Assembly (NCBI GenBank): GCA_016784025.1
Contig: JADHVL010000006.1
Span: 13,859-77,858, forward strand
DNA length: 64,000 nucleotides
From: Fidelibacterota bacterium
GTDB lineage: Bacteria > Fidelibacterota > UBA8477 > JABMPR01
Reading direction: 5' to 3'
The position numbers were made by a program, and so were the translations under genes. Positions 14,885 to 14,989 of this stretch are shown piece by piece. How positions within the stretch are numbered: the stretch's first letter is position 1; every line of letters starts with the position of its first letter. The notes beneath the pieces are model-generated. The model worked only from the letters and a program-made list of their open reading frames with translations, was not told where the DNA came from and did not search any database.

Positions 14885-14989
14885 TTTCTACTTTCTACTT
14901 TCTACTTCCTACTTTCTACTTCCTACTTTCTACTTCCTACTTTCTATCTCCTAACTTCTAACTTCTAACTCCTAACTTCTATCCTATCT
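14885..14989 (+). repeat. Heptanucleotide tandem repeat (15 units: 9x TTYCTAC/T then CTYCTAA-type units)
   Basis: Read directly: tttctac tttctac tttctac ttcctac tttctac ttcctac tttctac ttcctac tttctat ctcctaa cttctaa cttctaa ctcctaa cttctat cctatct. The tract ends 7 nt before the ATG at 14997. Confidence 0.9.

Follow-up and report, generated by a model that had tools for sequence, protein, structure and literature searches.

The heptanucleotide repeats that lie in front of an amidinotransferase-family gene in this Fidelibacterota genome are probably a tolerated, self-propagating and hypermutable microsatellite sitting in promoter DNA rather than a dedicated switch, judging from the sequence comparisons presented below. 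In the window, i.e. the whole stretch of 64,000 nucleotides that was analyzed, the array can be read directly as 14 head-to-tail units spanning positions 14885-14982, the first of which (TTTCTAC) starts at 14885, and its units fall into a distal and a proximal block (table 1). The same periodicity emerges from TRF, which returns period-7 rows of 9.0 copies (score 105) and 5.7 copies (score 59) together with a period-14 row (score 123); both hand parsing and TRF identify the direct repeats of 7 nt that characterize arrays of the STRR/TAACTGA type. No second array comparable to 14885-14982 was found by TRF in the 64-kb window.

A heptamer tract before the start codon had already been described in the first-pass annotation of this DNA and is real. 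The annotation counted 15 units, of which 14 stand; the supposed 15th (CCTATCT, 14983-14989) is not a repeat unit, because it overlaps a TATCTT box that is conserved in array-less relatives and represents ancestral promoter-like sequence. This stretch is followed by TCACCCC (7 nt) and then by the ATG at 14997, so that the gap between array and ATG measures 14 nt and is G-free. Indeed, the count of G over the whole of 14885-14996 is zero and the ATG consequently has no Shine-Dalgarno sequence before it, as the annotation had stated. It was equally right in dismissing as a gene the 93-aa ORF at 14687-14968, which has no Pfam match and is not conserved, its sequence being replaced in the closest relative, G011. 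A search of Rfam 15 with region 14400-15300 on both strands gave 0 matches at E<=1, ruling out a known RNA family for the tract, and RNA folding leaves the tract unpaired (MFE -3.9 kcal/mol over 151 nt), ruling out a structured leader. That the tract or its unit number was created by mis-assembly of this metagenome-derived genome is scarcely credible: even if related assemblies are broken at such arrays (by an N gap in locus L008, or with arrays that end contigs), the 98-nt tract is internal to a 161-kb contig with unique flanks, and independent assemblies from several projects carry homologous arrays with common junctions.

Table 1. Features of the divergent intergenic region and of the genes that flank it (window coordinates).
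Feature	Position	Strand	Basis or remark
Divergent gene, 243 aa, C-terminal UVR motif	13931..14662	-	Pfam PF02151, E=5.5e-5
Imperfect palindrome CACCCGAATTAGTTCAGGTG	14728..14747		Intergenic alignment
Decayed heptamers CTCCATA ACTTTAA ATTCTTC CTTCTAT	14764..14798	+	Relic of the ancestral array's distal start; corresponds by homology to where the array begins in G015
Element A (CACAACGAATTGAACGAAGCTTACGAA), dispersed repeat	14798..14824	+	About 10 copies in the genome
Distal block of array	14885..14947	+	8x TTYCTAC, then 1x TTTCTAT; homogeneous, younger units
Proximal block of array	14948..14982	+	CTCCTAA, CTTCTAA, CTTCTAA, CTCCTAA, CTTCTAT; older, common to G011
TATCTT, ancestral -10/-7-like box	14985..14990	+	6 nt before ATG; TA at -12/-11, TT at -8/-7
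Gene of the DDAH / arginine dihydrolase ('amidinotransferase') superfamily, distant member, guanidino-group-modifying, 312 aa	14997..15935	+	NCBIfam, Atlas

The 312-aa product of the downstream gene, hereafter called DDAH-like, matches the NCBIfam models Arg_dihydro and dimethylargininase at E=4.8e-12 and E=2.2e-10, respectively, with no score reaching the curated cut-offs, and the Atlas clusters nearest to it are named amidinotransferase family; the taxa of these clusters place the genome in Fidelibacterota (Marinimicrobia/SAR406). About 0.9 kb downstream of this gene lies a gene for a Crp/Fnr-family regulator (window 16828-17532). Codons 2-17 of the DDAH-like gene (HNREIILLGLAPVT) are conserved at the protein level, with differences by codon position of 729/315/1691 and the same excess at third positions that characterizes the rest of the gene (1246/522/4613), whereas the 48 nt upstream of ATG 14997 have 1676/1590/1475 and no codon periodicity. 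Because codons 2-17 vary in the manner of coding sequence while the upstream region remains flat, ATG 14997 is the true start, and the alternative GTG start at codon 18 (the Atlas entry begins at residue 18, with GTG read as M) is ruled out. The gene caller used elsewhere probably began the gene 17 codons late because the ATG has no Shine-Dalgarno sequence.

We then compared the DNA preceding this start codon across 20 orthologous upstream regions, both array-bearing and array-less, by aligning without gaps the 65 nt that adjoin the ATG (alignment A1, numbered from the A of the start codon as +1). Invariant columns in A1 are confined to the CT at -35/-34, the TA at -12/-11, the TT at -8/-7 and the start codon itself, with T at -33 present in at least 90% of the sequences; TAnnTT lies exactly 6 nt before the ATG in 20/20 regions. 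In the array-less relatives the upstream regions end with AGAAGTTnCTTTCTC–N16–TATCTTGATCCC–ATG, while all seven array-bearing sequences (7/7) have the CTT of a proximal unit in phase with the ancestral CTT at -35..-33. The proximal block of our array occupies the spacer and -35 region of the putative promoter, the CTT in question being that of 14962-14964. An element AGTTnCTT is also conserved upstream of the DDAH-like gene. Across the genome, TAnnTTG is about 3-fold enriched at -12/-11 from start codons (18 and 12 vs about 5), an enrichment that persists once the stop-codon confound is removed; elsewhere the genome does use Shine-Dalgarno sequences, roughly half of its genes showing a GGAG-type peak at -9 to -13. 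Start-proximal Chryseobacterium arrays of the CTTCTAA-type unit abut the Bacteroidetes -7 box TAnnTTTG, in parallel to the present locus, and others end 1-8 nt from the ATG.

The divergent UVR-motif gene presents a similar arrangement on the minus strand, namely TTGTGG (14692-14697), a 17-nt spacer, TAATTA (14669-14674), 6 nt and the ATG, which is conserved in relatives. In array-less relatives the whole divergent intergenic region measures only about 133 nt, all of it taken up by two bipartite promoter-like blocks placed back to back. Window segments 14660-14697 and 14962-14999 show that both divergent genes have a -10-like box separated from the ATG by exactly 6 nt, plus an element of the -35 position at textbook distance from this box; the boxes of the two genes look like back-to-back leaderless promoters.

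Since the -35/-10 geometry is anchored on the ATG, the mRNA of the DDAH-like gene is most simply leaderless, in which case the tract would lie upstream of the transcription start and not in the RNA. The array at this locus is most likely promoter DNA (about -15 to -112) and not an RNA leader, and the gene is probably translated from a leaderless mRNA. The comparative geometry suggests that transcription would proceed from a promoter having the TATCTT box as its -10-like element, 6 nt before the ATG, for which the proximal units would supply both the spacer and the CTT at -35..-33. This arrangement runs against the transcribed pyrimidine-rich leader, interacting with S1 or SD-like sequences, that was proposed by the first-pass annotation, as the TAnnTT and CTT geometry of the orthologous upstream regions would put the tract upstream of the transcript. 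In the broader form of a 5' leader providing a Shine-Dalgarno-independent platform for ribosome loading or regulators (ribosomal protein S1, Csp or CsrA-type), such an interpretation has in its favor that tract RNA would be unstructured, that several arrays from other phyla end at the short distance of 1-8 nt before a start codon, and that the units have a TAACT core in common with TAACTGA. It appears decidedly unlikely, nevertheless, because TAnnTT-N6-ATG and the CTT at -35..-33 are found also in array-less relatives that have no pyrimidine tract, and translation of the DDAH-like gene thus does not need the tract. Moreover, a consensus sigma-70 scan of the + strand upstream of the tract found no promoter-like site, its only matches lying inside coding region, and most arrays of this unit family are located after stop codons in the opposite orientation. 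The hexamer at the -35 position, CTTnnn, matches TTGACA poorly, which may leave room for transcription of the tract from a promoter farther upstream.

Orthologs of the DDAH-like gene were identified in 27/41 related genomes and in 10 metagenome contigs of sister species. Genomes G013, G009, G022, G005 and G021, as well as more distant members of the genus, are array-less with an intergenic region of about 133 nt, whereas in our genome, G011, G015 and G012 heptamers replace everything upstream of the TATCTT box. Against the 14 units of our genome, G011 has about 23 (11 CCTACTT, 7 TCTACTT and 5 others), about 18 of which form its polymorphic distal block; G015 has about 10-12 units of the CTTCTAA type, degenerate near the gene, and G012 about 20 or more, CAATTCA followed by CCTTCTT. 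Genomes G003, G002 and G017 carry 3-5 units of yet other sequences. The distal junction CACCCGAATTARTTCRGGTG…CTGCAAAA/CTYC (the slash marking the array border) is homologous in our genome, G011 and G015, and the proximal junction TGTCC/TATCTT is common to G011, G015, G012 and the collapsed mg145, corresponding to TATCC/TATCTT in our genome; close relatives thus have the same junctions with different units and unit numbers, i.e. length and sequence variation at conserved positions.

Genomes with and without an array are intermingled in the gene tree, where array-less G013 groups with our genome and G011. Repeated independent births of arrays at this site, as the tree would indicate, were withdrawn as an explanation for the large arrays in view of their common distal and proximal junctions, which make a single old array-bearing allele, with turnover of units and with allele exchange or sorting, the more economical interpretation; the short arrays of G003, G002 and G017 may be of independent origin. 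Arrays have persisted at this site across species that are about 10% apart in protein sequence, and this persistence, together with the in-phase CTT of 7/7 sequences, could reflect selection for function. At loci L147/L008 (G012), L012 (G003) and L013 (G017) the upstream neighbor is not the UVR-motif gene and synteny stops at the array, a situation that fits the remark of MacGregor that long heptamer arrays may mark points of rearrangement.

Other elements of the intergenic region bear the traces of an older array, the remnant of which (table 1) is separated from the present one by element A and about 60 nt following it (about 90 nt in total); it seems that element A split an older array at the locus. 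The consensus of this element, TTTCACAACGAATTGnACGAAGyTTACGAA, contains three ACGAA boxes with 9-nt spacing. Of its roughly 10 genomic copies, three are found at a distance of 30-65 nt from heptamer arrays, always with the same relative orientation, while some copies are arranged as inverted pairs about 30-60 nt apart; further sites in our genome are C5:19496-19522, C35:67273-67299, C28:67068-67149, C41:48760-48862, C26:36647 and C47:19273. A second dispersed, hairpin-forming repeat, TTCTCTGCGTCTCCGCGCCTCAGCGAGAACC, adjoins heptamer arrays of the GACCTTC type (C5:19650-19690 and C32:13480-13515 in our genome). The imperfect palindrome of the region may be an operator or a small repeat; at the site matching 14728-14747, its counterpart in G015 and in two metagenome contigs is perfect over 20 bp (CACCCGAATTAATTCGGGTG).

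Repeat-number polymorphism among relatives, which the first-pass annotation had suggested looking for, was found in sister species of the window's own species, in the form of whole-unit differences on identical or near-identical flanks. Locus L141 has 10 CCTACTT units, one fewer than L002 and L142 with 11, the flanks (2400 + 1093 nt) being free of mismatches; this difference could be an assembly effect given that the G011-type array, at about 160 nt, comes near the length of short reads. The second case is safer in its count, the G015-type array being shorter: L007 has 2 AACTTCT units compared with 4 in L146 and L148, on flanks about 99.9% identical. At L008 (G012) there is an N run inside the array, which is complete in L147 with identical flanks. 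All these differences in unit number fall in the homogeneous distal block, while the 5 proximal units and the -10 box are unchanged. Presumably, unit number shifts by whole units through slipped-strand mispairing at replication, and with gains and losses occurring in the distal homogeneous units the sequence and spacing of the core promoter would stay constant. Because the core promoter is left constant by distal gains and losses, little or no on/off effect on the gene is expected. Promoter-spacer SSR switches operate by altering the -35/-10 spacing; here the period supplies the same -35 sequence at any copy number, and a spacer-length switch is ruled out by the distal location of the variation.

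Another possibility is that of a tunable promoter, or contingency-type locus, in which unit number would affect how strongly the DDAH-like gene is transcribed. For example, an activator or operator site upstream, such as palindrome 14728-14747, would be shifted or turned relative to the core promoter (7 bp corresponding to about 240 degrees), or else DNA shape upstream of the -35 element would change. Copy number does vary between near-identical genomes, the array is located within the promoter region at a site kept through speciation, the upstream palindrome is common to our genome and G015, and heptamer SSRs are known to control hmw expression in Haemophilus influenzae (PMC12721329). We nonetheless regard this possibility as unlikely: variation is distal and core promoter sequence constant, five related species have a 133-nt region without any array, similar arrays follow stop codons or separate convergent genes, at places that involve no promoter, and the gene is metabolic, not of the surface or restriction type usual for contingency loci.

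The comparison with hmw, on which the expression switch of the first-pass annotation was modeled, can be made in detail. The hmw1A and hmw2A genes of H. influenzae have an (ATCTTTC)n heptamer SSR upstream (PMC12721329; PMC8262952), and transcription from promoter P2, upstream of the repeats, gives an RNA in which they form a long hairpin with a G-rich stretch farther down; RNase III cuts this hairpin, and an RBS follows (PMC12721329). Our locus is similar in having a pyrimidine-rich 7-nt unit of like composition, 11-25 copies of which lie upstream of a gene and change in number, presumably by slippage. It differs in that the tract ends at a -10-like box and has no RBS, no predicted structure and no G-rich partner: the 14 nt that remain before the ATG contain no G, and a complementary stretch capable of forming the hairpin is absent (MFE -3.9 kcal/mol). 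Furthermore, hmw is a single locus pair in a host-adapted pathogen, whereas the free-living marine bacterium considered here has about 35 arrays, including the present one. With neither a G-rich downstream partner nor an RNA fold, and with variation distal to the core promoter, a switch of the hmw type is not supported for this locus.

The abundance of such arrays becomes evident when the whole genome is considered (3.5 Mb in 47 contigs, 44% GC and about 91% coding). The TRF output contains 62 rows of period 7 with at least 3 copies; merging gives 37 arrays of at least 3.5 copies, of which 34/37 are intergenic. Period 7 is the commonest period that is not a multiple of 3 (31 TRF rows vs 3 for period 8 and 8 for period 10). 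The units are related but diverse, including CTTCTAA, CTCCTAA, CTACTTY, CTTCGAC, CTTTTCA and ATTCTAC, and the arrays reach 25 copies (C31:3324-3501), further examples lying at C25:34711-34834 and C42:20337-20419. The pattern (YTYCTAM)x4 has 44 matches in this genome and its reversed form 0, which speaks against chance as the origin of the tract; it is present in 15/22 genomes of the genus and 26/301 of the phylum, with the reversed control almost absent. Exact (CTTCTAA)x5 is found in at least 119 contigs from many bacterial phyla; among the matches listed, most belong to Flavobacteriia and other Bacteroidota, with additional ones in Moorena, a 'Candidatus Neomarinimicrobiota' MAG, Planctomycetota, Verrucomicrobiota, several Gammaproteobacteria and Firmicutes. 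Related drafts have arrays at contig ends (G019:C23:3-51, G019:C64:4-52, G014:C210:8-63 and G005:C51:18-73). As heptamer arrays break short-read assemblies, array counts in MAGs are underestimates. With about 35 similar arrays in the genome, many of them directly after stop codons, the existence of the tract at 14885-14982 requires no gene-specific function, contrary to the gene-specific role that the first-pass annotation implied.

The arrays show a distinctive orientation with respect to gene boundaries, which we evaluated by asking which end of the pyrimidine-rich strand of each array is nearer to a boundary. In our genome it is the 3' end of this strand in 19/27 arrays (p=0.05), and this end lies within 10 nt of the boundary in 14 arrays as compared with 4 for the 5' end. 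Among 88 unrelated (CTTCTAA)n loci from across phyla (L021-L139) the bias is much stronger, with the 3' end of the pyrimidine strand at the boundary in 72/88 (p about 1e-9; median distance 8 vs 80 nt). Of the arrays located within 40 nt, 48/63 have the commonest form, which reads gene–stop–(TTAGAAG)n along the sense strand and in which the first units of the array often provide the stop codon (offsets -4, -11 and -18); the sense array just before a start, i.e. the form of our locus, is a minority of 15/63. Orientation is thus tied to genes, forward before starts and reverse after stops, our locus being of the forward-before-start kind. A replication-strand explanation of this orientation is ruled out, as the purine strand matches GC skew in 18/29 cases and the majority gene strand in 17/29. 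We also dropped the idea that arrays are placed between the stop codon and an intrinsic terminator, since terminator-like sites distal to arrays (8/93 vs 7/93 on the opposite strand) are uninformative.

Polarity of this strength would suit a polar transcription insulator, in which any RNA polymerase heading for the abutted boundary would transcribe the C-containing, G-free and unstructured strand; this would serve as an ideal Rho loading site and block read-through or antisense transcription into genes. Besides the counts just given for the cross-phylum loci and our genome, orientation tracks gene direction and not GC skew (18/29), the tract is G-free with no RNA fold, and Rho is encoded in the genome (665 bits). 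We consider this explanation very improbable, being purely inferential and leaving the 7-nt period unexplained, as any C-rich, G-poor sequence would serve; some units, moreover, are not C-rich (AAAAGTG, AATATCG), and polarity could equally stem from array seeding or from selection that disfavors SD-like purine units ahead of start codons. The preferred interpretation remains that of a microsatellite tolerated in promoter DNA.

Knowledge of period-7 arrays in bacteria dates back to 1990, and their over-representation was shown in 2007. The short tandemly repeated repetitive (STRR) heptamers of cyanobacteria were reportedly described by Mazel et al. in 1990. The tract is a new member of this known class of intergenic heptamer arrays, from a new phylum (Fidelibacterota/Marinimicrobia) and with a new unit family; our literature search found no published CTTCTAA array. 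Intergenic GGGAATC/GGGGAYT arrays of Xanthomonas and Nostoc keep their position while showing 'extensive length and sequence variation' between close relatives (Rehm et al. 2015, PMC4692102). Our arrays resemble them and the STRR in the over-representation of period 7 in intergenic DNA, in conserved position combined with variable length and sequence, and in slippage as the proposed cause. They differ in phylum and in composition, for GGGAATC/GGGGAYT and STRR units are G-rich and a quadruplex has been proposed for them, whereas the units here are G-free on one strand and unable to form G4 structures.

The closest resemblance is with the TAACTGA direct repeats of Beggiatoaceae, Cyanobacteria and five Bacteroidetes, which are almost all intergenic (MacGregor 2015, PMC4679880). 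In 132/170 sets these repeats run 'forward' toward a start codon without RBS, while some are found in 'reverse' immediately after a stop codon; long arrays mixed with other heptamers occur in Gramella and Aequorivita, the nearest relatives of which have short repeat-free intergenic regions, and Cyanothece strains differ by 7-nt indels (PMC4679880). Binding of S1, Csp or CsrA was proposed as their candidate function (PMC4679880). Our arrays share with them the 7-nt direct repeats in intergenic DNA, the forward orientation before RBS-less starts and the reverse one after stops, the shorter, repeat-free intergenic regions of close relatives, and the indels in 7-nt steps between strains; the units, when rotated, read TAACTTC/TAACTCC and have the TAACT core in common with TAACTGA, from which they differ in the last two positions. 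Other differences are the phylum, Fidelibacterota, the many unit variants that coexist in one genome (BOGUAY has almost only TAACTGA), and the mostly stop-proximal location of CTTCTAA-family arrays (48 vs 15 start-proximal). Finally, comparative data put the array of our locus in promoter DNA and not in a 5' UTR.

What this locus adds to previous knowledge is, first, a clean case of whole-unit polymorphism on identical flanks. Second, it places the array inside the promoter of a probable leaderless gene, which argues against the usual model of action via the 5' UTR and translation; the interpretation as a leader or switch is probably wrong for this locus. The polarity rule that holds across phyla constitutes a constraint that any explanation of heptamer arrays must meet, and together with the promoter placement it represents the main value added by the present analysis. 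In the polar form, the 3' end of the pyrimidine strand abuts either a stop codon (in antisense) or a start codon or -10 box (in sense). We may tentatively suggest that TAACTNN-type arrays (TAACTGA, TAACTTC, TAACTCC and relatives) form one cross-phylum class of polar genomic elements, the orientation of which is locked to gene boundaries. If this were true, fixed polarity in Fidelibacterota, Bacteroidota, Cyanobacteria, Planctomycetota and Proteobacteria would imply a shared function, or else directed birth or growth of the arrays, rather than random slippage; such a shared function could be, for example, that of a directional barrier to incoming transcription, or of promoter-proximal DNA with special properties.
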